Assembly: GCA_030141605.1 (NCBI GenBank)
Contig: JAQGDQ010000274.1
Span: forward strand, 244,677 to 308,676
Reading direction: 5' to 3'
Length of the DNA: 64,000 nt
Origin: Tubiluchus corallicola
Taxonomy: Eukaryota > Animalia > Priapulida
The notes below the pieces were generated by a model. It was not told the origin of the DNA and searched no databases. It worked only from the letters and a program-made list of their open reading frames with translations. This document shows positions 38,311-63,350 of the stretch, piece by piece. Both the position numbers and the translations under genes were made by a program. How positions within the stretch are numbered: position 1 is the first letter of the stretch; each line of letters starts with the position of its first letter.

Positions 38311-38397
38311 GATTCTTCCGTGTTACAGTTATGCTAATCTATAAAGGACTCTTCAGCAATTCCGTTTTAAAAATTCATGTTTGTCAAAAATAAGTAT

Positions 38398-40052: not shown

Positions 40053-40223
40053 GGACATCAACATGGCAGAAATCGCAGCGCCATCTAGTGCAATCTATTA
40101 GAAACACTACAGTATTACAGGGCTTGTATCCTGCATTTACATATCAAGTGCGCGTGTATGCTGAAAATGAGATAGGTCGGAGTGACCCAAGCGAAGTTGT
40201 TACAGTCACCTTGGAAGAGGAAG
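40053..40223 (+). CDS. Dscam: Dscam exon, FNIII-1 C-half
   Basis: LQGLYPAFTYQVRVYAENEIGRSDPSEVVTVTLEEE. Confidence 0.93.
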
Positions 40224-40249
40224 GTAACTATTATAACTATACAGTAAAA

Positions 40250-40545
40250 ACGTTTCATCAACGTTTCACCAACGTATCATCAACGTTTCGTCAACATATC
40301 GTCAACGTTTCGTCAACATATCATCGACGCTAAATCAACGTATCATCGACATTTCACCAACATATTATCAACGTTTCGTCAACGTGTCATCGACGTTTCG
40401 TCAACGTATCGTCTACGTATCATCGACGTTTCATCAACATATCGCCGACGTTTCATCAACATATGATCAACGTTTGATCAAACTTTCAACAACGCATCAT
40501 CGACATTACATCATCAACGTTAAATCAACGTATCATCGACGTTTC
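40250..40545. repeat. Degenerate 11-bp-period repeat (catcaacgttt)
   Basis: Tandem low-complexity array just after the exon. Confidence 0.8.
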
Positions 40546-41945
40546 GTACCTTTTACCTTTTGTACTTTTTCTAAACGATATACACATATATTTATACAAT
40601 ACATATTAGCTTCTATACACTCCGCATTACACTGTATTCTGTATTATTTTATACAGACAATATTGTACCTTATTATTCCAGTTATATTGATTGAGGTCGT
40701 TTTTAAAGCACAAGAAAACCCTCAACTCAGTTAGAGCATAGAAAATTCGTCTTGAAATTTTATACCATTTACATACAGGGCTTGCGTCGGCAGCAACGCT
40801 GTTGAAAGATGTAAATTTAAATTCTGGCGACGACCTTTAGACGCAGCCATTTTGACGATAAGTCATTTGAAACAAATTTAGATAACACTGATTAAAGTTT
40901 GAAAAATAATCAGAGCATTCGTAGCGCACACGCTACTAACTAAGCAATTTAAATTACTGTATCTTGTCAGTAAGATTAAAAATACGTTTTGTGGTTAGTG
41001 AGTGGTGCACCCTGGAGGTGAATCAACGACATTTTACCAAGTGGTGAAAGCATTTTAAATAATTAATAATTTTCTTTTCTTGTTAGCTAAATCTTTCAAG
41101 CAGGTAAGCGAAATTCTAAGTAATATAGATTTGCATGTAAAGATTTTTGGGACATAATTTAACATTTCCTTTTCTTCCCCTGGTTTACGTTGTGCGTATG
41201 TGACGTCATGTAATGGCGCAGTCGGAACAGTACTGTGGGATATTTAAAATGAAAACAAAGTATTAATCCTCTCAACGTGAGTACGATATATTGGTATAAT
41301 TTTTTAAGGCGATTTTTCTGAAACCTACTTCAGGTGCCCCTTTTCTTGTCTTTTAACCAATCAAATACAATCAAGCATCTTGTACTTGCAGTAAGTTTGA
41401 ATCTTGTGCATTAAAAACTCAAATGTATAACAACTAGCTAGGGTTGTTATGTTTGATATTTTAAATGAAATACTTCTGCCCGAAAACCTTCATATAACTG
41501 CCTTAGGAAATAATGATCTGTTGAAGTTGTTATTATTCGGAAAAGATAAATTTAACTATGTTACTAACTATAAAATATTCCAATGTATACATGACTTTAT
41601 ATTACGTACTAAGCGCTTCCAGTAGCTTCTATCTGATATAAAATGCAGCAGTCTTAAATATTCGTACATTAATATTTTCTAACCGTCATTTTCTACTAAT
41701 GTCTAATGTAATCTTCTAGTAAAACTTGTCAGCTTGTGTAGTTATAGTCAATTTTTACTGTAAATGTTTTTGTAAATAGTGTATAAAGTCTGCCGTGGTG
41801 AGGATGCTAGATCATGTTGTTCAAACTGTCTGATCCAATCCTAAATATATTATGTTTAAACTAATTCAAATGCATCTTTTCCGTTAATCATTCACGTATT
41901 GCTTTTATTTTCTGTTGGTATTTTTCTGGCTTTTGAATTTTGCAG

Positions 41946-42016
41946 AACCAAGCGGACGTCCCATTAATGTATTCGTACAAGCTACGGGTTCCCAGTCTAT
42001 AAAAGTGTCTTGGTTG
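41946..42016 (+). CDS. Dscam: Dscam exon, FNIII-2 N-part
   Basis: EPSGRPINVFVQATGSQSIKVSWL; phase-0 gtaagt donor. Confidence 0.9.
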
Positions 42017-43303
42017 GTAAGTAGACACGTAATAGATTTGTCTACTTTAGGAAATGATAGCGCCACTATAATTTGCTGTTACCTAATTGAACGTGGTTTA
42101 TTAACCCGTCCGTGCGTTTGAGTAAAAACTTACCATATTTCCCATATTTCAACAAAAACCTTTTCACGGTTTCAGTGATTGATGATGATCGTGAAAAGGT
42201 CAAAGGTTAAGTGTACCAGACACTTGATACTTTGAATCGGAAGTGGTGCTGACAAGCCACGGCATAGCTGTGTCTAGTTTTTTGCTGGATTACTGCTGCG
42301 TTTACCTGTCTAAGGCAGATTTCTTTTATTTTAGAATTCTGCCTGCCCAATGTCTACAATAGACGTGACGGGTGTATGATGATGATGATGATGATGTACC
42401 AGACAACGCATTTGTGTACACTTGACAACGCCATTGTAATAGTAACAGCTTTAAAAACTGAAGTTACTGAAACGACTGAACTGATACGGCAGACGGTTTG
42501 CTTTACCCACATGTCACGTGACGGTTGTAGTTAAGACGCGTTGCTGTGGTACACTTAACCTTCGCCCTGCAGCACAACGAAACTAGGAAAATGTTTATTT
42601 AATGATGACTTAACAGTCCGCTGTCCGCTGTCAGTTAAGATGTTTATCTTGTTCGCTTTTTCACTCCTACTTTTAGTCAATTGATTCTCGTGTGATTTTT
42701 CTAATCATCTAGTTGCTTGTTTGTATTTTCTACTTATTTGTTCGTTTATCTCTTTTTTTGTTTATTAACTAATTCGTTCGTCTGTCTAGACTAATGAAAT
42801 TACCCCCCCCCCCGCGCCAGGCACAGCCACCCTCTAATTTGCTCGCGCTCGTCTCGAATATTTTTACTTGTGATATATTTTAGCAATATTTGCATAGCTG
42901 GGGGCCCATATTTCAAACAAAGGGCTTGAAACAGGGACTCTATCTCAAATATAAGGTCTCAAACAAGGGCCCTTTGACTCAAATAAAAGACCTCAAACAA
43001 GGTTCCTTTATCTCAAATAAGAAACCACTTTAGAATTGGATTTTCAGATTTCTTGGCGCTTTTTTAAATCTGAAACTTTATTTTAAGTTACATGAATTAT
43101 TCAGCAATACATAGTATTGGCCCCCAAGCTTGAGGGTTGCTAGGTTGCGGCCTATACTAGCCTATAGGTTAATCCAGCCCTGTCTGTTTTTCCTTCTTCC
43201 CGCAGATCGCTCCTTTGTTAATACTGCCTTAGAAAATGCACATTTCGTGTTAAAATAAATTCGTTAGTTTACTAAGTGCAAGTGTTATGTGTTTTCGCTT
43301 CAG

Positions 43304-43541
43304 CCACCTGCATACTCCTTTCGGAATGGTAAGCTGAAGGGGTATTACGTGGGATACCGTCTATTGAACAGCACTGGACCGTACCTATACCACACCTTGG
43401 CTTACACAGGCGAACAGGGAGAAACTCATGAATTGAAAAACTTGAAGAAGTTTACTGCCTACGTCATTGTCGTGTCTGGCTTCAATCGACGCGGAACAGG
43501 ACCAAGGTCTGAAGAGGTGACCGTGAAGACTCTAGAAGATG
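43304..43541 (+). CDS. Dscam: Dscam exon, FNIII-2 C-part
   Basis: PP...NGKLKGYYVGYR...LKKFTAYVIVVSGFNRRGTGPRSEEVTVKTLED. Confidence 0.93.
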
Positions 43542-44316
43542 GTATTCATAATTCGTATTGTTGTAGCAGTTTTAATTCCTTCAGGATAGCACTATTCAAA
43601 ATAGGTCTTATAAGACCTTCGAGTTTTCTGCTACTGTATGAGCACAGACATAACTAAATGATTACAAATTGGTGCTGTTCTAGTTTGGGAAAATCTCGGC
43701 TATCCAATCGTGCTATTTGTTTAAGCATTCGTAAGTGATTTAATAGGGTAAAACTTAAAAAGCAACCCCTTTTCAGGCACTCAACTTAGCTTGAATTAAG
43801 TCGCATAGTCTGGTGTACTCTTGCGTGATCGTGCACACTATTTTATTGATCGCCAACTTGTTGCTGCCCAAGCTGTGCAGTGTCCTTGTGCTATTCCAGG
43901 AAAAACCAACTGATCAGTCAATGACACATTAAGGTCGTTTCATCTTTTAACAAAAAAAATAGCTTAAAAATAGAGTGAACTTGAGGACAAAGTGAATCAG
44001 AGTGTTGTGTCTGGATAGTGGAAACTTTCTGCATTAACCCGTTTTACGCAAGTGATACTGTACTGTGTTACAGTGCAGCACTACAGATACTGAAAGTTTT
44101 TTTCAATTTATTCGTCAGAACTCGATTTTTAATTTGTCTCAGGTAAGCAAATGCATTTCACATATAATTTTGCATGAAAATCTATTGTGTGGGGAATACA
44201 AATCTACAAAAATTATCAAATATAACATAATTGCAGCTTAATGAAAGTAGTTTTTTATGAACCCGTTTTCGTCTTTTCGTGTACATTAGTATTAAATCAA
44301 ATATATACTATTTCAG

Positions 44317-44472
44317 TTCCATCAAAACCACCAAGGGAGGTGAGAGCAGTACCTCTTGCTTCTCAGAGCCTGATGGTTGAGTGGCTTCCGCCTCCATTTG
44401 AAAGCATTCATGGCATCTTGCAAGGGTACAAAGTTACCTACTTTCCCATTTTGGATGAGAGTGCTGTGGAAG
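44317..44472 (+). CDS. Dscam: Dscam exon, FNIII-3 N-half
   Basis: VPSKPPREVRAVPLASQSLMVEWLPPP..IHGILQGYKVTY. Confidence 0.93.
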
Positions 44473-45072
44473 GTAAAGAAATAAATTACATTCGAACTGA
44501 TGTTAGATAAATCAAAGGTGATTTCAATTGTTATAGTATTTTCATTTGAACTTTATGACAAGCCACCGACTAATTTCTTATATAAGTTAAAGTCTTTTGT
44601 CTTTAATGCTCACCTGCTTATACGGCAGATCTTCCTACTACAGTAAGTCTTCGTTTAACGATTCCCCGTTTAACGACGTTTCACTTAACGTACATTAGCA
44701 TCATTAATCAAGGACTTACTGTTCTTTTATTTGATAGAGAATTATTGTCAATTGGAAGTTTATTATTGTTGAGTAGCTTTTTGAACTAAATAGTAGATTT
44801 TTGTTTGCGGACACAAAACTGCATCATTGCGATTATGATATAAGTAATTTTTTATACAAATATGTACAAGAGTTTAGTTAATAGCTTGTTTCGCTTCATA
44901 GATTTTCTAGTTAAACTTGTATAACTGTCTAAATACTTTGTGCAACCATGTTGAGTCGGTCTGATGGCTAGTATCATCTGAAAATCATTACCCAAGCTGT
45001 GCCCACTGATAAAACCATCGGGTATACGTTGCTTTTGTAATTTTCACGTAAGAAATTTCAAAAACAAAATAT

Positions 45073-45164
<92 letters not shown>

Positions 45165-45202
45165 CACCGAAGTTAACGTTACAGGAGTAGCATTGCAGTT
45201 AA

Positions 45203-45888
45203 AGGAGAGGACAAGTCACTTAGGATTAGCATGTTGGGATTTCATTTTACTATTATCGCTGAGAAAATATTACAAAGAAATTGCAAAAACTGTCGAAAAG
45301 TTTATCTTGTGCACCTTAATATTACGCAAAGTAGACAGTGATTCATATCATCTCAGTTTTTTGCCTGACATGTCTTTTGTTTGGAAACCGATGTCGCTGT
45401 ACCCACAAATAATATAAATTTGGACTAAAATTTGTCATCTTTCTCATTGTCACCCTACTAATATATTGTATATTTGAAAAGTTTTGGTCAATAAATCTTT
45501 TACTACTACTGCTACTACTAGATATTTCAGGCTGGTGGTAGTCGCCATTATGACGTAACTGGCGGGCTTCCTGACCTTTCGTAAGCGCATCGCGGTTTTC
45601 CGTAAGAACGCGCACTACTTAAACTAATTCAAGCTTATGCAGCTTACATGCAAAATGTCGCAAAATACCTTTCTTTTTCTGTAAAAACTTATTATAGTTT
45701 TGGTGAAGATTGATATTGCGCTACTTTTATTCAGAACGAATGACGTCATGGAAAGAAGAATGGACATTGAAAATGGGAGCGCCCAAGCATGAAGTGATCG
45801 CGACTTTAAAGTGATTTTACTGATTACGCGAGATGTTTATAGCAGACATTGATTTAAGCCTAGCTTCCCAGAAGGCTTGACCTTTCCT
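45203..45888 (+). mobile_element. Kolobok-like non-autonomous element, family B (full copy)
   Basis: TTAA on both sides and imperfect TIRs aggagaggacaag / cttgacctttcct. Copies at ~27480-28040 and ~39030-39595. Confidence 0.65.
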
Positions 45889-46653
45889 TTAAACTCACAA
45901 TGAACGCCCAAATCTTTCAGAAAACGTCAAAAATTTAAGAATATCCAGCAGCATCATATTCAATAAATTGCCTATTAAAATCGAAATTATAATTACATAT
46001 ATACATTTTAAATAAATTTGACTCAATTCAAGAAAACACAATTTGATAGTCAACTAATGCTCTTTTATAAAAACCCTTCCTACCCATCTGTAGTTAAGTA
46101 CATACTAGGTTTATTTGTGCAATAACAATTTTAGTTGATGACGGCACAAGGGCTAGATAGCGTTTCCGAAATGTATTTTGTTTAACATGGCGACGTCTAT
46201 TAACAAAAGGAAACATTTTTAAGCTGGTGCCTCTTTAAAGTGTTTATGTTCGTCCTGGGTTGAGTAGCTGAGTGGTATGGATTTCAGACTACAACCACGC
46301 AGTGTTAAGTTCGAAACTGACGATTGCCGACGCCAGAATTATTATTTCTTATTTGTGTGTTGCGTCCTTACCTGTAATGTTGTAATTGTATTATCTGCGC
46401 AATGCGTGATGCGTAATCTGTAATGCGTTATGCGTGATCGAACGTGATGGCTGTTACGTATTACGCATTACAGGTCACGCACTATGCGCACATGGAGACG
46501 TAGCTCAAGTCGCTAAAAACTGTCAGTGTTGTCTGTTAAAAGAGCGACACCAAATAAAATTTGTCTTTATCTTTATTCGTACTTTCACCGCCATTTGCAA
46601 AACTTTTTCTTGAACGATGGAAAGCTACTGCAATGTTAAATTCTTTCTCACAG

Positions 46654-46809
46654 ATGACGACATGCCAGAGCATAGAAAAACGAACGGACTCACCATGACC
46701 ATTTACAACCTGAGAAAGTTTACAAATTACAGTATCGAAGTGTGTGCTTACACACGAGCTGGAGAGGGAGTAAAGAGCCAACCTGTGTTTATGAGATCTC
46801 TTGAGGATG
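46654..46809 (+). CDS. Dscam: Dscam exon, FNIII-3 C-half
   Basis: NLRKFTNYSIEVCAYTRAGEGVKSQPVFMRSLED. Confidence 0.93.
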
Positions 46810-47726
46810 GTACGTGATGTTTGTGTCAACGTTTCAGATTCTTCTTGCACAGTTGTACAGTTGTTGGGAAATATTCTTAACACAAGCGTTCAGTGGCGGT
46901 TCGTAGCTAAAATTACTGGGGGTGTTGCTTCAGAAGATCTTTACCCATTGTACTAATACTGTGTAAGCAAACGCATGTAATTTTAATGTAGTAATTCTAA
47001 TTTTAAACAAACAAACAAACACACAAATTTTGTACATCAACTTGAAAAAATCCTAAACAAACTATATTGCTTCCTTACGAATAGCCTAAATTGTCACCGT
47101 TCAACAATATGGCGTGACCATACAACATACACACTGTATGCGTGACAGTACTCTAAAGTGCAGGATTTTATCACAGACATGTGCGCATGGCCGCATGTGA
47201 ACAACAGCCAAACATCACGTTGTTTGAACTGTGAACACACTGTGCTGAGCTGTGAAGCAAACAGTACTAACCTCACGTGCTGTGGTTCCGTACACGTATA
47301 AGGAAAGAACTAAAGAAAAAAGACTTATTATATTGAATATTATTAATAATACTGAGTGAAAATAGAGGATGTTGCAGTTGCACAGTACCTATACACCAGC
47401 CGCCACTGCAAGCGCTTATACATTGCTAGGTGCCATTGTTCAGTTTGCAGGCTCAGTGTTTAGAATTCAATTAAAAAGTAATGCAAGGATAAAGTGTTGC
47501 TTAACTTCATCATCTTTTAATGAAAGGAAAGCTGGACGATTGTGTAGAAATTAGTTGAAAATAACGAATTTTCAAAAATTTTGAAAACTACAATAGCTTT
47601 CTTTACAACGAAGTTTAGATTAAATGATAATTACCTCGTATGAATAAACGAATGAACAGATAACTGAATGAATGAACAAATGAACAATCAGACAAATGAG
47701 CTCATGTGTATTTTTGCTGATTTCAG

Positions 47727-47857
47727 TACCAAGTGAACCTGCAGGAATTAAAGCTCTGCCAGTGGCGCCTACTAGCATTATTGTATCCTGGATGCCTCCC
47801 ACTTATCCAAATGGAGTACTGACTCGATATACTCTATACAGGCGTTATAATAGAGAG
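47727..47857 (+). CDS. Dscam: Dscam exon, FNIII-4 N-half
   Basis: VPSEPAGIKALPVAPTSIIVSWMPPTYPNGVLTRYTLYRR; donor gtataa. Confidence 0.88.
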
Positions 47858-48256
47858 GTATAATATATACATTATGCATGCGCTATAATAGAGAGGTATA
47901 ATATATTACCATTACTTTAAAATATACATTATAAATGCCCTATAATAGAGAGGTATAATATATTACCATTACTTTAAAATATACATTATAAATGCCCTAT
48001 AATAGAGAGGTATAATATATTACCATTACTTTAAAATATACATTATAAATGCCTTATAATAGAGAGGTATAATATATTACCATTACTTAAAATATACATT
48101 ATAAATGCCCTATAATAGAGAGGTATAATATCTTACCGTTACTATAAAATATACATTATAAATGCCCTATAATAGAGAGGTATAATACATTATCATTACT
48201 TTAAAATATACATTATAAATGCCCTATAATAGAGAGATATAATATATTACCATTAC
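47845..48256 (+). repeat. 57-bp tandem repeat containing the FN4a exon end and donor (tataatagagag|gtataa)
   Basis: About 7 extra copies of the exon/intron junction. Confidence 0.92.
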
Positions 48257-48654
48257 CTTCAAAAAAGATTTGTTGATAAGTTGCGAAAACTAGCTCAATT
48301 AAACAGAGCTTACTTATTCGTGATATCTTAATCATTTTTTGTTAATGTAATAATCCCTTTTTGTAATGCAAGTGACATAATCAGGTAGTTTGAGGCAAAT
48401 GCTCAGAAACTCAGCAGTTTTTCTAAAAAAATCTATCAATTTTCAGAACAGACGTAACAGTGGCCAAAATGGAGGGCACCCACTAGTAAGTAAATAATAT
48501 GAAATCTATTAAAATAAAAATATGATAATTTGCGATGACATAATATAATGACATAAGAACAGATTTAAACTCCTTTCAGACCTACGTGCAAAATGGCGTA
48601 TTCTGGTTTTACACTTAAAAAATTATTCAAATGATCCAGTTGCAATTTAAAATT

Positions 48655-49740
48655 TGCCTTCAGTCCAATGTTCTAGGCCTTGTGTTGTAAAACTCAACCA
48701 GGAGAACTGTCTATTTTTCTTCAGTCCAACGTTCTAGTCCTTGTATTGTAAAACTCAACCCAGAAAACTGTCTATTTGCCTTCAGTCCAATGTTCTAGGC
48801 CTTGTGTTGTGAAACTCAACCCAGAGAACTGTCTATTTTCCTTCAGTCTAATGTTCTAGCCCTTGTGTGGTAAAACTCAACCCAGAGAACTGTCTATTTT
48901 GCTTCAGTCTAATGTTCTAGCCCTTGTGTTGTAAAACTCAACCCAGAGAACTGTCTATTTGCCTTCAGTCCAAAGTTCTAGCCCTTGTGTTGTAAAAATC
49001 AACCCAGAGAATTGTCTATTTTGCTTCAGTCCAATGTGTTAGGCCTTGTGTTGTAAAACTCAACTCAGAGAGACTGTCTATGTTTCTTCAGTCCAACGTT
49101 CTAGTCCTTGTATTGTAAAACTCAGCCCAGAAAACTGTCTATTTGCCTTCAGTCCAATGTCCTAGCCCTTGTGTTGTAAAAATCAACCCAGAGAATTGTC
49201 TATTTTGCTTCAGTCCAATGTTCTAGGCCTTGTGTTGTAAAACTCAACTCAGAGAGACTGTCTATGTTTCTTCAGTCCAACGTTCTAGCCCGTGTGTTGT
49301 AAAACTCAACCCAGAGAACTGTCTATTTGCCTTCAGTCCAATGTTCTAGCCCTTGCGTTGTAAAAATCAACCCAGAGAATTGTCTATTTTGCTTCAGTCC
49401 AATGTTCTAGGCCTTGTGTTGTAAAACTCAACCCAGAGAGACTGTCTATTTTTCTTCAGTCTAACGTTCTAGTCCTTGTATTGTAAAACTCAGCCCAGAA
49501 AACTGTCTATTTGCCTTCAGTCCAATGTCCTAGGCCTTGTGTTGTAAAACTCAATCCGGACAACTGTCTATTTGCCTTCAGTCCAATGTTCTAGGCCTTG
49601 TGTTGTAAAACTCAACTCAGAGAACTGTCTATTTGCCTTCAGTCCAATGTTCTAGCCCTTGTGTTGTAAAACTCAACCCAGAAAACTGTCTATTTGCCTT
49701 CAGTCCAATGTTTTAGGCCTTGTGTTGTAAAACTCTGTCT
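48655..49740 (+). repeat. ~60-bp minisatellite, ~18 copies, each with an acceptor-like ctgtctatttgccttcag
   Basis: The array ends at the true acceptor ctgtctatttttacag (49750). Confidence 0.92.
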
Positions 49741-49750
49741 ATTTTTACAG

Positions 49751-49904
49751 ACAATTCGACAGATTAACTTGCCAGCAAACGTAACCACGTACACATTGAA
49801 GAAACTTCATCGTCATCAGCAGTACACGTTTTGGATCAGCGCTTGGACAAGCGTGGGAGAAGGTCCTGGTACGAAGCCAATCCAGCAAGCACCAAATAAC
49901 AAAA
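49751..49904 (+). CDS. Dscam: Dscam exon, FNIII-4 C-half
   Basis: TTYTLKKLHRHQQYTFWISAWTSVGEGPGT. Confidence 0.92.
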
Positions 49905-50382
49905 GTATGGCAGTTAATGATGATGTTAATCAAAACAAGTAAACAACAGTAATGATGAGCAAGATGATGCATCACAGCAAGAATGACACTTACAAAAACA
50001 AAACCACTATGATAACGTCAGCGACATTGACGATAATGATGACAATGACAACCATGTCGATGATGACGACGACGACGACGATGATGATGCTAATGATGAT
50101 GATGACAATGGTGACGATGATGACGATGATGGCGATGGTGATGATGATGATGATGACGATTTGAAATAGAAGTCATTACGCCTTTTTATTCTAATTAGGA
50201 AATAGATGATCACTCAATAGGCTCAAAAATATATTTTTGTAAAGTGCAATATTACGTATATTATAAGATTGATGAAAATCAGAATTTTTAATTGAAATTC
50301 AGTCAATAGGAATAGTCAAAACAAAACAGAGATATAAATGAATCTTTATCATTCACATGGTATAACTGGACCATTTGTTTAG

Positions 50383-50497
50383 TTCCAGCAAGGATAGTAT
50401 CTTTTGGCCGAACAATTTCAACTAGATGGAAAAAAGACGTGATTCTACGTTGTGAAACCATTGGTCACCCAAAGCCGGACATCAAATGGGTTTACGA
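50383..50497 (+). CDS. Dscam: Dscam exon, Ig10 N-half
   Basis: PARIVSFGRTISTRWKKDVILRCETIGHPKPDIKW. Confidence 0.92.
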
Positions 50498-50905
50498 GTA
50501 TGTATTAAAGAAAACCGCACGATTGTTTAGACTCAATCTCATTTTAATTTACTGTCCTGGATATACATTTTCATGTCTATAAAAGTTAGCAATTGTTTTC
50601 TATATTTGAATAATTAGCTTAGAAAGTTATGTAATGGCAACCAAACACAGCTATTGCTTACGTCAGAAACTAACCACAGCTTGTGCTACGGCAGGCATCT
50701 CCCCTTGCGCGTCAAGCACGTTTGCGCAAGTGCAACTGCTTAAACTTCGTGATGTCACGAATGTGGGCTCTACGTCATATGACGTCTGAAACTAGCACTG
50801 CAGTTCACGATTATGGTTATCACGGTACCGCTTTCCATTTATGGGCCACGCGTATGTGACAAAAAGGCGCCGCTGCCAATCTTAATAGATATATATCGGT
50901 TTCAG

Positions 50906-51057
50906 GAAAATGATCCAAAGAGCTTCACGAATTCACTTACGGAAAGACAACTCTCTTCTTCTGGTAGACGTACGCCAGGAAGATTCGGGAAAATATATTT
51001 GTCATGTTTCCAATTCTCATGGCTCAGATGAAGTTGTCTACGAATTACTAGTTAGAG
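50906..51057 (+). CDS. Dscam: Dscam exon, Ig10 C-half
   Basis: DNSLLLVDVRQEDSGKYICHVSNSHGSDEVVYELLVR. Confidence 0.92.
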
Positions 51058-51158
51058 GTAAGAACACATAGTCTATAGTCTTTCTACGTAATTTTGAAAC
51101 TACAGAGGGATACACGCACTTAGTATGTAACTATTAAATGCGGTTTTTTATATAATAG

Positions 51159-51260
51159 GTCCACCAAGTAAACCAGTAATAAAGGTTGTTGCTGTGACGT
51201 CATCATCCGTTATTGTAAACTGGAATGTTTCTGATGACGTAGGAGCCAGGAGATTAACAG
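51159..51260 (+). CDS. Dscam: Dscam exon, FNIII-5 N-half
   Basis: GPPSKPVIKVVAVTSSSVIVNW; the phase-1 donor gtgggt fits the next exon. Confidence 0.88.
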
Positions 51261-51524
51261 GTGGGTGGGTAAGCATACAAGTTGATGTAAAATAGTGAGT
51301 TGCAGAGAATTGAAATGAAAAATAAAATTAACTTTTAAATTTGAATGAAATCGAATAAGACATGCTTCATTTGCATGCAATCAACGAGAGATGAAGATCA
51401 GTTTGCGTGCGTTTCAGTTAGCATAACAGCTCGGAAAGCAGCAAGTCTTGGGTTCGAGTCCCAGCTGAGGTGAAAATATTTCCAAACTTTCTAATTCAGT
51501 GTTGCTTTCTTGTGTTTACGTTAT

Positions 51525-51526
51525 GT

Positions 51527-51558
<32 letters not shown>

Positions 51559-51573
51559 GTGGTGATGATGATG

Positions 51574-51605
<32 letters not shown>

Positions 51606-51675
51606 GGTGATGATGGTGATAATGATGATGATGATGATGATGGTGCTGAAGATGATGATGATTGATGGTGCTGAC

Positions 51676-51713
<38 letters not shown>

Positions 51714-51745
51714 CGACGATGACGATGATGGCGATGATAATAAAG
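51525..51745. repeat. (GAT)n microsatellite (another at ~50010-50160)
   Basis: Simple repeat. Confidence 0.95.
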
Positions 51746-51917
51746 ATAAGGATACTGTTATTAACAACTTGCTGTACAATACTGATACAATTTTTAGATC
51801 AAACATTTTTAAACCGTGGCAAAGAATTTTATTTACCCATTTTAACTAACCCTTTCTTGTATATAAGCTTACTATGTTCCTGTATAAACTATATATATAT
51901 ATGTTTCTATTTTCCAG

Positions 51918-52103
51918 CAATTGAACTAAGATATAAAAGAGAATTTGACGACTGGCACGAGATTAATGTACTTGTGGAGAACAAGACTGTTGTTGTGGAC
52001 AATTTAATGTGTGGAAGTAATTATCAGTTCACCATGGCTGCCTACAACAGTGTTGGCATGAGTGAAGCAAGTGACGTACTTGCTACCTCTACAATGGGAT
52101 CCA
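51918..52103 (+). CDS. Dscam: Dscam exon, FNIII-5 C-half
   Basis: IELRYKREFDDW...NLMCGSNYQFTMAAYNSVGMSEASDVLATSTMGS. Confidence 0.93.
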
Positions 52104-52144
52104 GTAAGTATCATATCAGATCATTAGTATTTTGTTTAGTTATG

Positions 52145-52620
52145 TACTGTCCTGTCTGGTGCCCCTACGTTACTCTGCCCTGTCCTGTCCCATCCCATCC
52201 CATCCCGTCCTGTCCTGTCTTGTCCTGTCCTGCCCCGTCCTGCCTGGTCCTCCCCTACATTGCTCTGCCCTGCCCTGTCCTGTCCTGTCCTGTCCCGCCT
52301 GGTCCTCCCCTACATTGCTGTACCCTGTCCTGTCCCGGTCTGCCCTGTCCTGTCCTGTACTGTGCTGCCCTGTCCCGTCTGGTCCTCTTCTACATTGCTC
52401 TGCCCTGTCCTGTCCCGTTCTGTCCTGTCCTGTCCTGTCCTCTGCTGTGCTGAGCAGGGCTGCCCTGTCCTGTCTTGTGGGTCTTGTCCTTTTCTGTTCT
52501 GCTATTTATTGTGCTGTGTTGTCCTGTCCTGTGCAGTCCTGTCATGTCCTGTTCTGTCCCGCTGTGACCTGTTCTGCTTTGTTCTGACCAGCCCCGTATC
52601 GTGTCTTGTCCAGTTCCATC
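52145..52620. repeat. (CCTGT)n-derived pentanucleotide low-complexity repeat
   Basis: Simple repeat that accounts for the Cys/Pro-rich ORFs. Confidence 0.9.
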
Positions 52621-53989
52621 CAGTCTTATCTTGCCTTGCTTGTTTTGTTTTATTATTTTATTTTATTTTGTTTTGTTTTATTATTTTATTTCATCTTGTT
52701 TTACTGCTTTGTTCTATTTCTCATCTTACCTTGCAGTGCTGGCAGCTACAGAAATGATAAAAGTGAATCAAGTGATAGAAAACTGAGATCAACTAATAAG
52801 ATTTGCAAGGTTCTGTCAACGCTGTATTAATTTATTTCATAATCTTCTTATTTCTTGGTTTATTTCATATTTATCAGCATTTTCAGTTTCTTACGATCTC
52901 TGGAAGCTTCCAGAGATTTTGCTCTTATATACTTCTGCCTCATTCTTGCGTATTCTTTTCCAAATTTGGCTCTCACACGGCAAAACGTAACAAACAGTGA
53001 CCACAATTTTCAATCCGTATGCATTTTACGGATGTTTCAGATATGATCTATTTCTAAGTCTGTTTCAGACATGATCTACGTTTTAGACAAAATTAACGTA
53101 CGTCATATTTGCGTCAACTTACATCATCATTAGGACTGAGCATTTTCTACCAGAAAGCGAATTCGAATCGAATCGAATTTGTGACTTTCTAATTCAAATC
53201 GAACCGAATTTCAGCATTTCGAATCCGAGCCGAAGTCGAATTGCGTTTGAAAGATTTTCGAACAAGTTTTCGAACCGCTAGTAAAAAGTGGTCTTACAAA
53301 GATCGTGCATATTGCTCGATTATGTTCTGCTGTAAAACCACTGTTAGTTTGTTAACAAATTTGCACAGAAACTGCAGCTAAAGTGTACTAATTGCTTGCA
53401 GTTTCAAACACTTTAATGACAAAGAATGTATATAACTGAAGTGCTAAATTATTCGAATCTATAATTTTAGGTTGGAATCGAATTCGAACTGAAAAAACTC
53501 GTTCAAAATTCGAACGTTCGATGCTTACCTCTAATACCTATGTCTGTTAAGAACTCAAGTTTATTTGTTAAAAAATAAAAAAATAATACTAATTTATTAT
53601 TATTTATTTGTTTTAATGTTTATTTCAGCTCTTAGACGTTACGTGTCTTAAGGCATAAAAACAATTACTAATAAACGTAATTACCAAGATATAAACGTAT
53701 TATTTACAAAACTTAAAAAGAGAAAGTAGTTCAAAATATTTAAATAAATACATTATTAAGACATACGTCAAGCGTTTTGGAGCATATAAAAACATTAGTA
53801 TGGTAAGTTACATGTTTTAAGAAACTATTAGAAGAATTTAAAACGTGGTATCTAAAATTATAATTTACAGTAGAGCAAAAGAGGTTTAAAATGGTTAATA
53901 TAGGCCTAATCACAGTTTTGTTGTGCGCACGCGCATTTGCTGTAGGTCGAAGGTTCAAAGGTTAAGTGTATCTTGATCAAAGGTCTAAT

Positions 53990-54495
53990 CAACTAGTTGA
54001 TTAAAAAAATCAAACGAGAATCAATTGACTAAAAGCAGGAGCGAAAAAGCGAACGAGATAAAACATCTTAGCGGACAGCCGACAGCGGACTGTTCATCAT
54101 GAAATAAACATTTTCCTAGTTTCGTTGTGCGCATGCGTAGTTGCTGCAGGGCGATGGTTAAGTGTAAAACAGCAACACGTCTTAAATACAACCGTCACAT
54201 GACATGTGGATAAAGCAAAGCCATCAAGCTCATCAGTTCAGTAATTTCAGCTGTTTTAATTAAGTCAGCGGACTTAATTATGCATTAGTGATTTACTAGC
54301 AGGATCTTGCTTGGGAACAAGAAAAAAATAAACTAGATAAGGTTCTACCTAGCTGTTTAAACATGTTAAAACTGTTACTGTTACAAGAGAATGGACTGTA
54401 AGGCGTTGTCAAGTGTACACAAATGCGTTGTGTGGTACACTTAACCTTTGACCTTTTCACGATCATCATCAATCACTGGAACTGTGAAAAGGCTT
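53990..54495 (-). mobile_element. MITE family A extended copy, inverted relative to 42160-42715
   Basis: Reverse-complement match including the cagtccgctgtc...tagtcaattgattctcg extension. Confidence 0.75.
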
Positions 54496-54545
54496 GTTAG
54501 ACGAACATTGAAATTAGCACGCTGAAATAACAAGTCGGACGTGGC

Positions 54546-54751
54546 TTAAAGTTCACAGACGAAACTAGCCTTTAGACCGCAATTCTCATTTGACCAAGTA
54601 TAACCTTGTGTTGTGAGCATTGCTACACAGTCTTTATCTGTGTCGTTAGTTGGTTTTCCTGACTGCCAATCAGAATACTCGAACAAGCGACCTGTCTCTT
54701 CCCACCGGAAGTAACCCTCGTGCGAAATACCCGAGCCGGATGTCCAGAATC
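54546..54751 (-). CDS. Nested lectin gene exon 4: C-type lectin domain C-half and stop
   Basis: GFWTSGSG..HEGYFRW...YSDWQSGKPTN...DCVAM...YTWSNENCGLKASFVCEL*; acceptor ccctattcag. Confidence 0.9.
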
Positions 54752-54824
54752 CTGAATAGGGAAACGTATTGCAGGTAAACAACTCAAAAAAATCACTACC
54801 AAGTATTTCTAAACATAAAAATTG

Positions 54825-56940
54825 AAATACGAAAAAAGTTCCCACAGAACCCAAAACTAGAAATACAAAAAAGTTCTCAAAGAACCCAAAACTAGAAATA
54901 CAAAAAAGTTCTCAAAGAACCCAAAACTAGAAGTACAAAAAAGTTCCCACAGAACTCAAAGCTAGAAATACAAAAGGGTTCCCACAGAACCCAAAGCTAG
55001 AAATACAAAAAGGTTCCCACAGAACCCAAAACTAGAAATACAAAAAAGTTCCCACAGAACCCAGCACTAGAAATACAAAAAAGTTCCCGCAGAACCCGAA
55101 ACTAAAAATACAAAAGGTCACAGAGAACCCAAAACTAGAAATACAAAAAAGTTTCCACAAAACCGAAAGTAGAAATGCAAAATGTCACAGAGAACCCAAA
55201 ACTAGACATACAAAATGTCACAGAGAACCCAAAACTAGAAATACAAAAAAAATTCCACAAAACGCAAAGCTAGAAATGCAAAAGGTCACAGAGAACCCAA
55301 AACTAGAAATACAAAAGGTCACAGAGAACCCAAAGCTAGAAATACAAAAGGTCACACAGAACTCAAAACTAGAAATAGAAAAGGTCACACTGTACTCAAA
55401 ACTAGAAATACAAAAGGTCACACAGAACACAAAACTAGAAATGCAAAAGGTCACACTGAATCCAAAACTAGAAATACAAAAGATCACAGAGAACCCAAAA
55501 CTAGAAATGCAAAAGGTCACAGAGAACCCAAAGCTAGAAATACAAAAGGTCACACAGAACTCAAAACTAGAAATACAAAAGGTCGCACTGTACTCAAAAC
55601 TAGAAATACAAAAGGTCACACAGAACCCAAAACTAGAAATGCAAAAGGTCAAACTGAATCCAAAACTAGAAATACAAAAGATCACAGAGAACCCAAAACT
55701 AGAAATGCATAAGGTCACAGAGAACCCAAAACTAAAAATGCAAAAGGTCACAGAGAACCCAAACTAGAAATACAAAAGGTCACAGAGAACCCAAAGCTAG
55801 AAATACAAAAGGTCACACAGAACTCAAAACTAGAAATACAAAAGATCACACAGAACTCAAAACTAGAAATACAAAAGATCACAGAGAACCCAAAGCTAGA
55901 AATACAAAAGGTCACAGAGAACCCAAACCTAGAAATACAAAAGGTCACACAGAACCCAAAGCTAGAAATACAAAAGGTCACACAGAACTCAAAACTAGAA
56001 ATACAAAAGATCACAGAGAACCCAAAGCTAGAAATACAAAAGGTCACAGAGAACCCAAACCTAGAAATACAAAAGGTCACACAGAACTCAAAACTAGAAA
56101 TGCAAAAGGTCACACAGAACTCAAAACTAGAAATGCAAAAGGTCACAGAGAACCCAAAGCTAGAAATACAAAAGGTCACAGAGAACCCAAAGCTAGAAAT
56201 ACAAAAGGTCACAGAGAACCCAAAACTAGAAATGCAAAAGGTCACACAGAACTCAAAACTAGAAATGCAAAAGGTCACAGAGAACCCAAAGCTAGAAATA
56301 CAAAAGGTCACAGAGAACCCAAAGCTAGAAATACAAAAGGTCACAGAGAACCCAAAACTAGAAATGCAAAAGGTCACACAGAACTCAAAACTAGAAATGC
56401 AAAAGGTCACAGAGAACCCAAAGCTAGAAATACAAAAGGTCACAGAGAACCCAAAGCTAGAAATACAAAAGGTCACAGAGAACCCAAAACTAGAAATGCA
56501 AAAGGTCACACAGAACTCAAAACTAGAAATGCAAAAGGTCACAGAGAACCCAAAGCTAGAAATACAAAAGGTCACAGAGAACCCAAAGCTAGAAATACAA
56601 AAGGTCACAGAGAACCCAAAACTAGAAATGCAAAAGGTCACACAGAACTCAAAACTAGAAATGCAAAAGGTCACAGAGAACCCAAAGCTAGAAATACAAA
56701 AGGTCACAGAGAACCCAAAGCTAGAAATACAAAAGGTCACAGAGAACCCAAAACTAGAAATGCAAAAGGTCACACAGAACTCAAAACTAGAAATGCAAAA
56801 GGTCACAGAGAACCCAAAGCTAGAAATACAAAAGGTCACAAAGAACCCAAAGCTAGAAATACAAAAGGTCACAGAGAACCCAAAGCTAGAAATACAAAAG
56901 GTCACACAGAACTCAAAACTAGAAATACGAAAAAATTCCA
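54825..56940. repeat. 33-bp minisatellite (cacagagaacccaaaactagaaatacaaaaggt), ~64 copies, with a 4-monomer higher-order repeat
   Basis: Tandem array filling intron 3 of the nested gene. Confidence 0.95.
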
Positions 56941-57066
56941 GCAGAACCCATTAATCAACACAAAAACTTTAAACTGTACCAGTGTGACTTAGTCTACAAC
57001 ACCCACGCCACGATTCACAAATTTAAATGTTTTACTTTAATTGAAAGTAACTGAAAAATTGCTCAC

Positions 57067-57266
57067 CATTAATTCTTGGTGAACGACATCTGACAGCTGC
57101 TATTTCGGTATCTCCGCAATTTTCTACCCCCCAACCGCTGTGTGCGCATCTTTCTAAAGAGACTTCATTACCACTGCATGTGACGTCATCCAGATGAAAC
57201 CTTGCATTAGGATAGTCACTCACAGGGTTACCAAATGAAGTACCTTGTGTAACCTCTTCTGCTCCA
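57067..57266 (-). CDS. Nested lectin gene exon 3: SRCR C-half
   Basis: GAEEVTQGTSFG...FHLDDVTCSGNEVSLERCAHSGWGVENCGDTEIAAVRC; donor gtgagc. Confidence 0.92.
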
Positions 57267-57707
57267 CTGTGATAACATAACGAAAAATGTCAAAATTTTC
57301 TTAGTCTGTGACAGTAATGTAATGTAATGTAAAATTTATTTACATAGCACACTACATTTAAATTCTCAGCACGTTGGACAATAAAATACATTTAAAATTC
57401 ACAAGAAAAATCAAATAAAACATAAAATTGTCAGTCTGTTAGAAGAGACATTAAATTTTATAATTTTATGCTGAAATGTGTTAATTGTTGTTCGTTAAAT
57501 AAGAAAGAAGTATTTGAGTAGTTAAATTTAAGACCGAATTCCGCGAGGATTCCTCCCGAAAATGGAAAATGCAACATTTCTACCGAGCGGCAAAATTCCT
57601 CACGAGGAGGACGCACAGCTTCTAGCTGGCGGCAGAGTTCCTCACTGTGAAATGGGCCTTATTAATAACAGAGTAACATCTCCAATACCATCCAAGATGG
57701 TACTAAC

Positions 57708-57867
57708 CTAAATCCTAGCTGACGACAGATAACGTGTCCATCAGATATCCCCCAGGAATCATCACAGATGAACCCCCATTCGCCATTGTAACGGATCATC
57801 GGGTAGCCGCTTGTAGTCTCCCATGAAGCTTGGTTCACGCCATGTACAAGTTTCACTTCGGATATAT
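57708..57867 (-). CDS. Nested lectin gene exon 2: SRCR N-half
   Basis: VKLVHG...SGYPMIRYNGEWGFICDDSWGISDGHVICRQLGF; donor gttagt. Confidence 0.92.
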
Positions 57868-59581
57868 CTAAAAATCGGTGATAATTGTTTAATTTCATAT
57901 CAATTTTCGGTAGCATGCTTAGCTTCGAGGAACAGTTTGGAGCAATGTTGTTTACGTTGAATTGAGGCGAATATAGAGAATGAAGTGATTGTGAAACTTC
58001 CGAAGTGGCGTTTATGTTGCATGCGGATGCGGATGCATTTTGGGGGTGCGGAGTAGATAAAATCGGTTATATTGTTTTCAATGCACCAGTTTATGCAGAT
58101 TGCATGTGTGTTATTCTTTTTCTGCAGCTATTCCTGTTGATTTTTTCCGCAGGCTGTGCCGCAATGGAAAACGCATCCGCATCCGGGTGCTGGGTAAACA
58201 CCACTTGGTGGGAATAATTTAGCTACAGTATCATATCGTCCTAGCACATATATTAGACCTATATCCCTTTTAGCTCTAGAACAGGCCTACTTGTGGCTTT
58301 TGACACAGCATTATCCGAATCTTTACAAAAATTTTACAAAATTGCAACAAAAGGCATCAGTTACTACTTAAACGTTAATGCTTTGGAACAAAAATTTAAA
58401 CAAAAATTTAACGTTCAACACGTAATTATAATGATCATTGTTAACCGTTGCACTGTATTTTCACGTAATAGAACACAATGTAACGTCTCCGTTACAGCGA
58501 TTAAGAGCCAGCAGCAGAGGGCCCACAGCCCCAACAAAAATAATTTTTATTCAGATGGACTCATAAATGATACCCGGTTCTCCCTACACGTGTTATCTGA
58601 TGTTGCAAAGATGACCCAACCATGGACTTGCCTTCAGTCAATATATTCACGGCAGATCTAGTAACCAAAGCCTTCAACGCCTAATACCTTATAATCAGTT
58701 AACATCTGAGATTAACCTTACAGGGCAAGAAGATGGGTACTTGAAGTAGGTTTCAGAAAAATCGCCTTAAAAATTATATTACTTTATAGCAATTTTATGC
58801 GTATATCGTACTCGCGTTAAACGGATTTTTTGTTGCTTTCATTTTAAGCTTCTCGCAATACTGTTCTAACTGCGCCATTTCATGACGTCATATACGTACA
58901 ACGTAAATCGGGCAAAGAAAAGCAAATGTTAAATTATGTCCCAAAAAACTTTCCAGGCAAAGTAATATAACTTTGCCTGGAAAGTTTTTGGGACATAATT
59001 TAACATTTCCTTTTATGAAGACTTGCGTAACTAGAAAAGAAAATTATTAATTATTTAAAATATTTTTTAGAAATTGGTAAAATGTTGTTGACTCACCCTC
59101 CAGGGTGCACCACCCACTAACCAAAAAACGTATTTTTAATATTATTGACAAGATACAGTAATTTAAAAATTTTCTTATTTAGTGACGTTTACGCTACGAA
59201 TGCTCTGGTTATTTTTTCAAACTTTACTCAATGTTATCTAAACTTGTTTCAAATGACTTATCGTTAAAATGGCTGCGTCTAACAGTCATCGCGGGAGTTT
59301 AAATTTACAGGTTGTATAAAGCGTTACTGTCGATGCAAGCCCTGTTTGCAAAAATGCAGTATACAAGTGGTATAAATTTTCAAGACGAATTTTTTAAGCT
59401 TTATGTAAGTGGAGGGGTTTCTTGTGAACTAGCCAGCACGCGTTAAAGATTACTAAAGTAAATTTAGTGGGATACTATTTAAATGTAAATTACCTGCTTG
59501 CTTTCTCAGCAAAATACCTTGCGTCTCAGCTTCTAAATACAAATTTTCATTGAACTCAAAAATTCTTTATAAAATTCTAAC

Positions 59582-60473
59582 CTCCCATAATGGTCCTAAG
59601 TAGTTTCTTTATCGCTAACATTTTAGCGTAGGAGTCGACGGAGATGAGGTTCGCTTTATTATCTGCACATATTTGCTTGGCTTCCGTCCAAGTTACTCCA
59701 GTTGGAAATTCTGAAGTTGTAGTGAAAGGTTTGAAGCACCTTGTTGTCAATGAGTCAACAGATTCAGCAAAACCTCTAGGACATCCTTGCGTTTCTTCAT
59801 ATCTATGCGAAACTGCCATGACGACATCTTGGATGTTATTGGCAATGCTATCTAGTTTATCTGCTAACACTTGAAATACTTCCGTTGTCATGTTGGTCGT
59901 TTCCATTGTTTTCTGTTCTCTCTTGTGCAACGTTTCCATTGTTCTCTGTTCTCTTTTATCTAACGCATGTAAAAGGGTGTCTATTGCAAGGTTTATTTTA
60001 TCTAACAGTTCATTTGTTTGATTGTTGCCGTTAGCAAATTGGTTTTTTAACGCTTCCTCATGTTGACGTTTTTCCACAGCTTCTAGCCGCGCTTGTAGAA
60101 GTTCCAAGTCCACATAAGTGTCATTTACTTGCAAACATTTGTCTTTATCGTCAACAGTTTCGTCACTTTCTTGTTCGTGCAACAACTTCAGTGTGTTTAT
60201 CTGTTCCTGTAGTTTATTCTTTGCTATTGCATTTTCACCTATTTGTTCTTCTAGTGAGCTTAGCTGATCCACAATGTCGTCCACTTTAACACCATTAGCA
60301 TTGATAACATTTTTATTCATTTCATCCAACTTTTCAATTACAGCTTTAATATGCTCTTCTGTGCAGAGTTTGACCTCTGAAGGTACATCAGTTTCGTTGG
60401 CATTAATGTGCTTCTTAAGAGCGGCTAATTCAAGAATAATAATTAGTAACACGGTTCTAGAAAGAGAAGCCAT
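59582..60473 (-). CDS. Nested lectin gene exon 1: probable signal peptide, coiled coil and C-type lectin N-half
   Basis: Hydrophobic N-terminus, an E/K/L/Q-rich heptad-like region, then CPRGF...RCFKPF...TWTEAKQIC...LISVDS; phase-1 donor gttaga. Confidence 0.9.
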
Positions 60474-60824
60474 CGTAAAATTCAGTGAAAGAAGTATCAG
60501 CAGTAATGACAGTGTGGGAAATTTTGAAGTTGCGTCTAATTTCCTATCTCTACTGCTTATATTCTTATATTAATGTAAACAGGATGTCGGAAAATTACTT
60601 CATAAATTTTCACAGGAGGCAAGTTTCCTGCAAGCACTGAAATGTCATCCATGTGACATTTCTAAAATTCCCGCCAGACTTTTGTTACACGGTATCCTGA
60701 TTTCCGTTTCTTTGTTGGATGTCGTGGAATCGTTATTTCTGCGAAGATAAAGTGTGTCGAAACGTTCTAGAAATTACTGAAAATCCATGACACGAGCCGA
60801 AACATTCATTTCAGTTTTATCACG

Positions 60825-61025
60825 TTAAATTTGTTAGATTATATTCCTTTTCCTTTGAGCCCAAATTTATTGAGTAATATTCCTTTTGCAGTGTACCCAA
60901 ATTTGTTGGGTAATATTCCTCTCAAGTTGGGCCCAAATTTATTGGGTAATATTCCTCTCAAGTTGGGCCCAAATTTATTGGGTAATATTCCTTTTGCGTT
61001 GGGCCCAAATTTATTGGGTAATATT
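60825..61025. repeat. 39-bp tandem repeat x5 with internal palindrome (cccaaatttattggg)
   Basis: Tandem array ~350 bp upstream of the nested gene ATG. Confidence 0.85.
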
Positions 61026-61629
61026 CATATGAAATTTGTTGTTTATTTTACTATGTTTAATCATAGTACTACGTAATCTTTATTAAAAAATATTAAAAGA
61101 TTTACGGTTAAAAGCATAAAGAGCCAAGAGCCATGACACATGTCTGTTAAATGATTATGATGATAAATGATTATTAAGATTTACATCTTTTAAACGGTTT
61201 TTAAAAAGTTTGCTACTTTGAGCACAGAGCCAAGGGGCACCACCGACTGACACAGGGAGTTAATTTCAGATTCTTTGAGAAAAAAGTTTTCAAAACAATC
61301 AAGTCGGCAGCGAGTGAGCTGTGATATTGTCAGATGACAGTGCATTTGACTGTTATTCGAGCCCAGAGTGTCTGGCTTCCCACGTCGCAGCATAAAAACA
61401 TCGTTAATGACACGAAAATGTTACCTAAGGTCCTAAGGTTACAGACTCTCAATTTCATACCAAATTTGAAAGACGGGAACTCCAGGCTGGATTCTATTTT
61501 TCTCATACTAATACCAAATCTGAAATAATTGGAGGGTTTGTGCCAATAACTCTTAATTATAATCTTTATATTATATAGTATTTGAACTAATATAGTAATT
61601 AATAGTTTAAGTTCTGTGGAATTTTACGA

Positions 61630-61970
<341 letters not shown>

Positions 61971-62017
61971 ATTGTTGTTATTGTTATCTCTTATATTAAT
62001 ATTCTTGGTATATTTAT

Positions 62018-62812
62018 TTATATATAAGATTCGAGGCTACAGCCCGGACGACGGCACCATTTGCGGCGATCTATATATCAAACGAAAGGTCTCGATCTAG
62101 TGTCGTCTCATTAGGGGTTTATTTTTCGAATGGGGCCCACCGCGAGGAACGGGGGGCGAAAAACCTCCAAAAATGGCCAGTTTTTGGCCGTTTTTTGCAA
62201 AAGTTATACGGCTGAGATGTAGAGAACGGGAATGGGCCGAGGGGGGTGCTGGGTATGGATAGATAGCCCGTTCAGCGATGGGTGTCATAGGCCTATTTAG
62301 AATTCGCGAGAGGGCCACTGGGTCCCGTAACGGGCGTTTTCCCGGACCCAACTCGCGATTTTTTCGAAATTTTGACCAAACAGCATGCGGGAAAAACGTT
62401 CTAGCGTCGCCCAGTGGGACTCTCGGAAGGAGATATATGGCTCTTTACAAAGAGGAAGGACAGGGCTACACGATGATGTGGGTTATATTTTAGGGCAGGT
62501 CCACCGAAAGGAGTATTGGCGAGTTAATTAGGAGTTCTATTTTCGGCAATTTTCAACCCAAATAATTGCTGACGCAAAGGCAGACGCATTCCATTGTGCT
62601 GACGTCATCCATTATTGCTTATAGCTTTAATTCAGCAAAAAGCTGCTTTGCGTTAGTTAAACATACAGTAGGCACGAGTACAGGTTTTGCGTTAGGTAAG
62701 TAGGCAGGATGTTACGGGCTTTGCGTTATACATGGGGACTGTGTAGGATGTTCGCGTATTATTCATTACACGTGTATTTATACGCAAAATCTTTTGCGGG
62801 GCCTTTGCTAGT
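62018..62812 (+). mobile_element. GC-richer insertion, possibly a non-autonomous Helitron-like element
   Basis: Abrupt composition shift. Starts tatatataaga and ends gcggggcctttgCTAGt. No TIRs seen. Confidence 0.35.
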
Positions 62813-62949
62813 TATTATATTAATATTAATGTTATGAATATTTGTTATAAATCAAAATTAATGAATGTTTTTTCGTAAAAAGGCAAATTCAGAATGCCCC
62901 GATATAGAAATTTTGCACTAATTATGTGTATAACAGAAGCCAAATAGGT

Positions 62950-63165
62950 AATGAATAAGCAGACCAGTAGAAAAGATACAGTATATTAGGCAAGGCTTCT
63001 GTTAAATACATAATTACTGCATAATATTCTATACTGTAGGCTCTACCTATATAAACTGTTTGTACGTTTGCAAAAATTAACCGCTGATGATGACAACAGT
63101 AGCTCCGTCGAAACGCTTGACAGGATTTTTAACTAGATTAATTAATTAATAAAGTTGTGGTGTTT
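62950..63165 (+). mobile_element. Penelope-like dispersed repeat with hammerhead-like core (copy 3)
   Basis: CTGATGATGAC...GTCGAAACG at 63084-63115. Ends just before the FN6 acceptor. Confidence 0.55.
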
Positions 63166-63177
63166 CTTTAATTTCAG

Positions 63178-63350
63178 CTCCAGTTAAACCGTCCAGTGAC
63201 TCATTTATCCTGCGCAATACAACAAACGTAATTCTTAATCTATCTGCATGGTCTGACAGTGGATGCCCCATTCGATCATTTGTGATTGAGTATCAAGAGT
63301 TTGCCTCAGCTCTCTGGAAAACTGTTGATAACAGCGTCAGTCCTAACCAG
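63178..63350 (+). CDS. Dscam: Dscam exon, FNIII-6 N-half
   Basis: PVKPSSDSFILRNTTNVILNLSAWSDSGCPIRSFVIEYQ...WKTVDNSV; phase matches the exon ending at 52103. Confidence 0.92.

Follow-up and report, generated by a model that had tools for sequence, protein, structure and literature searches.

A candidate SRCR domain nested within a C-type lectin domain in a gene of the priapulid Tubiluchus corallicola

C-type lectin domains (CTLDs) and SRCR (scavenger receptor cysteine-rich) domains count among the most common recognition modules in the innate immunity of animals. The papers cited here show them in series, or one or the other capping a stalk (PMC6716108, PMC7663992, PMC5119243). Here we describe a gene in a 64,000-nucleotide stretch of the Tubiluchus corallicola genome (GenBank assembly GCA_030141605.1, contig JAQGDQ010000274.1, positions 244,677 to 308,676; hereafter the window) in which a whole SRCR domain probably lies between the complementary halves of a single CTLD. 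The gene is read from the minus strand and is enclosed by a Dscam-type gene's intron on the opposite strand. An earlier reading of the letters alone (the original prediction) had proposed this layout and added that the SRCR exons form a skippable cassette; we examined both claims and weighed the explanations that could account for the locus.

Results

Four minus-strand exons form one open reading frame

The coding parts of the four exons join to 1,458 nt, which read as 485 codons followed by TAA (Table 1). All three introns have GT..AG borders, with junctions in phases 1, 2 and 1, and an in-frame stop precedes the ATG, which is the first in frame. The original prediction had the coordinates, lengths and phases right. 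Direct joining of exon 1 to exon 4 also stays in frame and gives 365 residues, in keeping with the prediction that exons 2 and 3 are flanked by phase-1 introns and that their removal restores the frame.

At each of the four splice sites bordering the two phase-1 introns, three to six GT or AG dinucleotides occur within 45 nt, and at all four the domain edges coincide with the chosen one. Exons 2 and 3 lack a start, a stop and a signal that would let them stand alone; the only phase-compatible neighbours found for them in the host intron are exons 1 and 4. We regard the placement of the SRCR domain between the two lectin halves in the genomic reading frame as probably real, and the four exons likely encode a secreted recognition protein.

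Table 1. Features of the SRCR/CTLD gene and its host, in window coordinates
Feature	Positions	Strand	Details
Exon 1 (coding part)	59582..60473	-	892 nt; likely signal peptide, helical stalk, CTLD N-half; phase-1 GT donor
Hydrophobic N terminus (residues about 1-25), likely signal peptide	60399..60473	-	From hydropathy; the protein has no other hydrophobic stretch
Helical stalk (residues about 32-228), likely coiled coil	59790..60380	-	Cys37, Cys113; four N-glycosylation sequons in residues 26-194
CTLD N-half (residues 227-297)	59582..59795	-	Cys231, Cys246, Cys269; helices 1 and 2; model positions 3-62 of 136
Exon 2	57708..57867	-	160 nt; SRCR first half: Cys332, Cys345, Asp333, Asp334; enters in phase 1, leaves in phase 2
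Exon 3	57067..57266	-	200 nt; SRCR second half: Cys381, Cys391, Cys401, Cys411, Asp377, Asp378, Asn400, Glu405; enters in phase 2, leaves in phase 1
Exon 4 (coding part)	54546..54751	-	206 nt; CTLD C-half, WIGL-equivalent strand to stop; Cys459, Cys475, Cys483; KPT, WSN
33-bp minisatellite, 63 copies	54834..56933		2.1 kb, most of intron 3
Dscam-type host gene, Ig and fibronectin-III exons	13327..63350	+	Pfam; Protein Data Bank
Host intron between two fibronectin-III exons	52104..63177	+	11.1 kb, phase 1, GT..AG; holds the whole SRCR/CTLD gene antisense

Exons 1 and 4 carry complementary halves of one CTLD

Searched separately, the outer exons match opposite ends of the same domain. Pfam finds the Lectin_C profile in exon 1 weakly (profile positions 3-35, E = 0.072) and also in exon 4 (39-106, E = 4e-8). 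In the Protein Data Bank (PDB) the tail of exon 1 gives weak matches to first halves of CTLDs, and the matches of exon 4 are to second halves, mosGCTL-3 being the best single domain (E = 2e-7). On a 136-position reference profile made from 96 intact CTLDs of other animals, the N-half scores 40.7 bits and the C-half 40.8 bits at positions 69-132, with no overlap between them. Joined, they align as one domain over positions 3-132 with 84.9 bits (88.9 bits for the trimmed domain), outscoring 18 of the 96 domains used to train the profile.

The spacing between the halves gives the same picture. The distance from the helix-1 cysteine to the tryptophan of the WIGL strand is 151 when the insert is counted and 31 when it is left out; among the references it runs from 27 to 42 with a mode of 32 (63 of the 96 could be measured). 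Because a spacing of 31 lies within this range, no lectin residues were lost. A full-length profile match, the four core cysteines (Cys269, Cys459, Cys475 and Cys483) and a WIGL-type strand are found only when both halves are taken together; Cys231 and Cys246, of the long form, bring the cysteines to six. By the usual CTLD pairing, Cys269 is presumably bonded to Cys483, here across the insert. The two halves are predicted to fold as one CTLD from whose helix-2 loop the SRCR domain projects. Pfam, profile and spacing thus agree with the original prediction that the N-half ends exon 1, the C-half is exon 4 and the SRCR domain sits in the loop between helix 2 and the WIGL strand.

Among the findings that the original prediction named as counting against it are additional exons completing two separate CTLDs. 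We looked for such exons and rejected this arrangement: a scan for lectin and SRCR motifs in the three introns and both flanks found no extra exon, and Pfam reported neither Lectin_C nor SRCR in a further 150 window frames (of 185 listed, 148 were scanned, plus two more).

EPN or QPD together with WND are the site-2 motifs of CTLDs (PMC12842671); in this protein the EPN position reads KPT (residues 450-452) and the WND position WSN (470-472), so that the motif pair of a calcium-dependent C-type lectin is lacking. Canonical calcium-dependent sugar binding by the CTLD is therefore unlikely. The domain may still bind ligands, because two CTLDs with altered or missing motifs do so: clam SPL-2, which carries KPD, binds N-acetyl sugars independently of calcium (PMC12842671), and the motif-less CTLD of crab SpBark binds lipopolysaccharide (PMC6716108).

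The insert is a group A SRCR domain that retains cation-site residues

Both central exons match the Pfam SRCR profile above its cut-off (exon 2, positions 8-41, E = 5e-9; exon 3, positions 36-100, E = 2e-9), and both match SRCR domains in the PDB. All six cysteines are in place, and the module is edged by phase-1 introns and by linkers of 5-7 residues. Group A SRCR domains have six cysteines and are encoded on two exons (PMC3100851), the state found here; other invertebrate SRCR domains occupy one or three exons (PMC10855680).

In DMBT1, two exposed cation sites are needed for ligand binding, one formed by D1019, D1020 and E1086 and the other by D1020, D1058, D1059 and N1081 (PMC7043408). Mapped by motif and spacing, the equivalents of these sites 2 and 3 are all kept in the insert (six of six: Asp333, Asp334, Glu405, Asp377, Asp378 and Asn400). 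Because the CTLD has lost its calcium and sugar motifs and the SRCR domain has kept its cation residues, the insert likely supplies calcium-dependent binding. The dual recognition originally predicted calls for a qualification on the side of the CTLD, where KPT and WSN stand in place of the canonical motifs. In sequencing run X1, one contig (depth 17.4) differs at 57750, where codon 337 would specify Glu in place of Gly; this codon sits at the DMBT1 site-1 ligand position, and the variant may be an allele or a paralogue.

The N-terminal part resembles a signal peptide followed by a helical stalk

Hydropathy peaks at the N terminus (2.05), and after residue 30 no 15-residue window exceeds 1.0. 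The hydrophobic stretch begins near residue 8, spans about 12 residues and includes one Glu; the same analysis of the 485-residue protein showed no C-terminal hydrophobic segment. The product is likely secreted. Heptad periodicity is detectable over residues 38-226 (p = 0.026; two of four segments below 0.05, uncorrected), and a single-sequence structural model of exon 1 shows a helical stalk at low confidence (mean predicted local distance difference test (pLDDT) score 51, predicted template modelling (pTM) score 0.26), the lectin half alone not folding in this model. Hydropathy, heptads and the low-confidence model together make the signal-like N terminus and the helical stalk of the predicted secreted, coiled-coil-oligomerized protein likely. 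A short tandem duplication of about ten codons lies in the stalk at residues about 171-192 (window about 59895-59955, minus strand).

Read matching and searches for relatives

Reads were matched from runs X1 and X2 at 90% and from X1 at 80%, X1 being of unrecorded kind. X1 covers the intron repeats and most of exon 1 and leaves exons 3 and 4 uncovered, a gap that is uninformative. One X1 contig (59605-60317, 713 nt, depth 25) has a single difference to exon 1 and ends 23 nt before its donor. Non-repeat X1 pieces near exon 1 are about 150 nt long at depth 2-6, in contrast to this 713-nt contig, whose size and depth hint at several gene copies or at RNA in X1, depth being no copy number. The matching speaks neither for nor against splicing.

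Relatives were sought with single exons as queries, and because the spliced protein was not the query these searches are weak for the nested layout. Word-indexed protein searches returned 1,385 candidates for exon 1 among proteins of 163-520 residues, with none at E 0.01; among longer proteins they gave no candidate for exon 4 and nine for exon 3, with none at E 0.001. HMMER, queried with the 125 residues at the end of exon 1, found 14 matches. Pfam scans of 13 of these identified Lectin_C in ten (2-16 copies) and SRCR in none, a pattern scan of the fourteenth revealed no SRCR motif, and, of the ten that were looked up, those with a name are mannose-receptor-like proteins of unrelated animals. 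Metagenome scans confirmed exon 4 in none of 151 stretches and exon 3 in none of 362. The ESM Atlas yielded nothing but generic lectin clusters (exon 1 at 0.80-0.83; exon 4 at 0.93, perlucin-like), and tblastn detected no second copy of the gene within the 64-kb window. Full-text searches of the open literature listed no paper that describes an SRCR domain inside a CTLD; such a layout could stand in the domain tables of SRCR and lectin surveys.

Proposed insertion of an SRCR module into a lectin-domain intron

From the exon structure, phases, domain halves and motif states, all read directly from the DNA, we infer how the transcript would be spliced and how its product would fold, oligomerize and function. 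We favour, as moderately probable, a history in which an SRCR module of two exons entered a stalk-and-CTLD gene through a phase-1 intron in the helix-2 loop, yielding one secreted oligomeric protein with composite heads whose SRCR domains bind in a calcium-dependent manner. The older gene would have carried a phase-1 intron in the loop between helix 2 and strand 2, and a class 1-1 SRCR module encoded on two exons would have landed in it. Such an insert could be tolerated because the termini of an SRCR domain lie together and linkers of 5-7 residues flank it. The Cys269-Cys483 bond would clasp the CTLD halves across the SRCR domain and the stalk would oligomerize the heads; the SRCR domain would bind anionic surfaces with calcium, and the CTLD, devoid of its calcium and sugar site, would serve as a scaffold or a calcium-independent binder. 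The likely role would be that of a soluble multivalent agglutinin or opsonin.

Several points weigh against this reading. No sequencing dataset listed with the sequence is recorded as RNA, no exon junction occurs among the read joints listed (15 of 54 and 15 of 64), and the protein and metagenome searches with single exons gave no relative, hence no support from conservation. The coiled-coil signal is modest. Within the SRCR domain, Gly337 occupies the position of one buried site-1 ligand, and GYPMI replaces GRVEV, the bacteria-binding peptide of DMBT1 (PMC3100851). The reference profile is partly circular, its sources being the matches of exon 1 and its first round having been seeded with the joined form; this concern is eased because Pfam independently yields the same split.

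The original prediction drew from the phase symmetry of exons 2 and 3 that the gene may make two products by alternative splicing, a plain stalk-and-CTLD lectin and the nested form. A module inserted into an intron must be phase-symmetric, so symmetry follows from the insertion and is no sign of alternative splicing, and because neither 160 nor 200 nt is a multiple of three the two exons must be skipped jointly. The skip form is in frame, and both its profile score and its loop length are those of a canonical CTLD; the two SRCR exons have acceptors of no great strength (over the 17 nt scored, the share of pyrimidines is 0.65-0.71); the acceptor of exon 4, however, is no better (0.71), and the read joints listed include no skip junction. 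The frame would permit a skip isoform, 'skippable' is unproven, and we consider alternative use of the exon pair unlikely.

The SRCR exons could instead be a passenger (a recent insertion, a relic of another gene or an assembly chimera) that is always spliced out, leaving an ordinary coiled-coil lectin of 365 residues. The completeness of the skip form suits this idea, as do the repeats crowding introns 1 and 2, the 2.1-kb minisatellite in intron 3 and the coverage of exon 1 but not of exons 3 and 4 by X1. That coverage gap proves nothing, however, and both SRCR exons are open, with six of six cysteines, six of six ligand-site residues and four phase-correct splice sites, so a passenger seems quite improbable to us.

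We give still less credence to a nested protein whose halves pair between chains by domain swapping or whose N terminus stays uncleaved and serves as an anchor, in the manner of class A scavenger receptors. A stalk would keep several heads close together, and an anchor followed by a coiled coil and an SRCR/CTLD layout recalls those receptors (PMC7663992). Yet the short linkers and adjacent SRCR termini permit pairing within one chain, and the sole hydrophobic stretch, N-terminal and short, is by hydropathy more like a signal peptide; nor is there any Gly-X-Y run in the translation or collagen match in Pfam. Transcripts that end in intron 3, with exon 3 followed by 11 codons to a stop, so that a stalk, half a CTLD and the SRCR domain are made and exon 4 serves only the skip form, are highly improbable: read-through of the exon 3 donor does meet a short open tail, a stop and an ATTAAA hexamer, but such hexamers are common in DNA of 36% GC, the donor is a good GTGAG and half a CTLD would keep Cys269 unpaired.

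Genomic surroundings

The antisense position of the insertion-bearing gene wholly within a Dscam-type intron was absent from the original prediction; the layout is an ordinary one and we do not count it as new. The best PDB match of one host exon is Dscam (E = 9e-18), and another host exon matches FN3_DSCAM-DSCAML_C above the Pfam cut-off (46.9 bits). No arrays of duplicated alternative Ig exons are apparent among the host-region frames scanned. An endonuclease/exonuclease/phosphatase-like frame at 21065-21541 (minus strand), in a host intron and adjoining the start of an Ig exon frame, is probably a remnant of a long interspersed nuclear element.

Introns 1 and 2 of the SRCR/CTLD gene are full of high-copy repeats. 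In intron 1 they include inverted-repeat elements (58003-58206, 58918-59014 and 59026-59187) resembling miniature inverted-repeat transposable elements, one of them a near-perfect 97-nt palindrome. No long repeat shared by both sides of the SRCR exon pair was seen in 56950-59600, a range outside which most of intron 3 falls. The minisatellite yields long spurious open frames on both strands. Upstream of the gene lie a 36-bp tandem repeat and long trinucleotide runs (60827-61026 and 61630-62003), and a TATA-like TATAAG stands about 90 nt before the ATG.

Discussion

Insertions of one domain into another are known from the fibronectin-II repeats in gelatinase catalytic domains and from the integrin I domain. 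The gene described here resembles them in that a module with adjacent termini, on symmetric exons, enters a loop of another domain. The SRCR domain in the helix-2 loop is apparently a case of domain-in-domain exon shuffling with an undescribed pairing.

Known proteins share parts of this architecture. By layout, the shrimp lectin MjCC-CL corresponds to the skip form, with an N-terminal coiled coil and one C-terminal CTLD; its CTLD is canonical, uninterrupted and binds bacterial glycans, whereas the CTLD here is split by the SRCR domain and lacks EPN and WND (PMC5645147). In class A scavenger receptors, too, a coiled-coil stalk is capped by a group A SRCR domain (SR-AI, MARCO, SCARA5) or a CTLD (SRCL/COLEC12), and among single domains in the PDB exon 3 matches that of SCARA5 best (E = 4e-9). 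These receptors differ in having a membrane anchor and collagen, the latter absent from the 485-residue protein, and in carrying one of the two domains, with no nesting of one in the other (PMC7663992, PMC5119243).

Bark beetle/Anakonda proteins, among them crab SpBark, combine SRCR domains with a CTLD free of EPN, QPD and WND in one chain, and SpBark has a demonstrated immune role in the crab (PMC6716108). SpBark is a type I membrane protein of 2,863 residues with three SRCR domains and one intact CTLD in series (PMC6716108), an organization far from that of the 485-residue protein. The SRCR domains of DMBT1/SALSA, as mapped by motif, have in common with the insert all residues of cation sites 2 and 3; they are of group B, with eight cysteines, one exon each, tandem arrays and an intact GRVEV (PMC7043408).

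A bolder possibility is that the gene represents an undescribed, perhaps lineage-specific class of secreted proteins, in which the nested SRCR domain takes over the lost calcium-dependent binding and its exons, included or skipped together, let the head alternate between a plain lectin fold and a composite one of different specificity. We think this doubtful.

With a single copy and no transcripts or relatives so far, the gene is a good test case and not yet a family. In annotation, nested proteins of this kind are easily mistaken for a pair of broken lectin domains or for split genes. If the favoured reading is true, exon shuffling can exploit an intron that lies inside a domain, the helix-2 loop of a CTLD accepts a whole domain of 110 residues, and the inserted domain possibly replaces a binding site that its host has lost.

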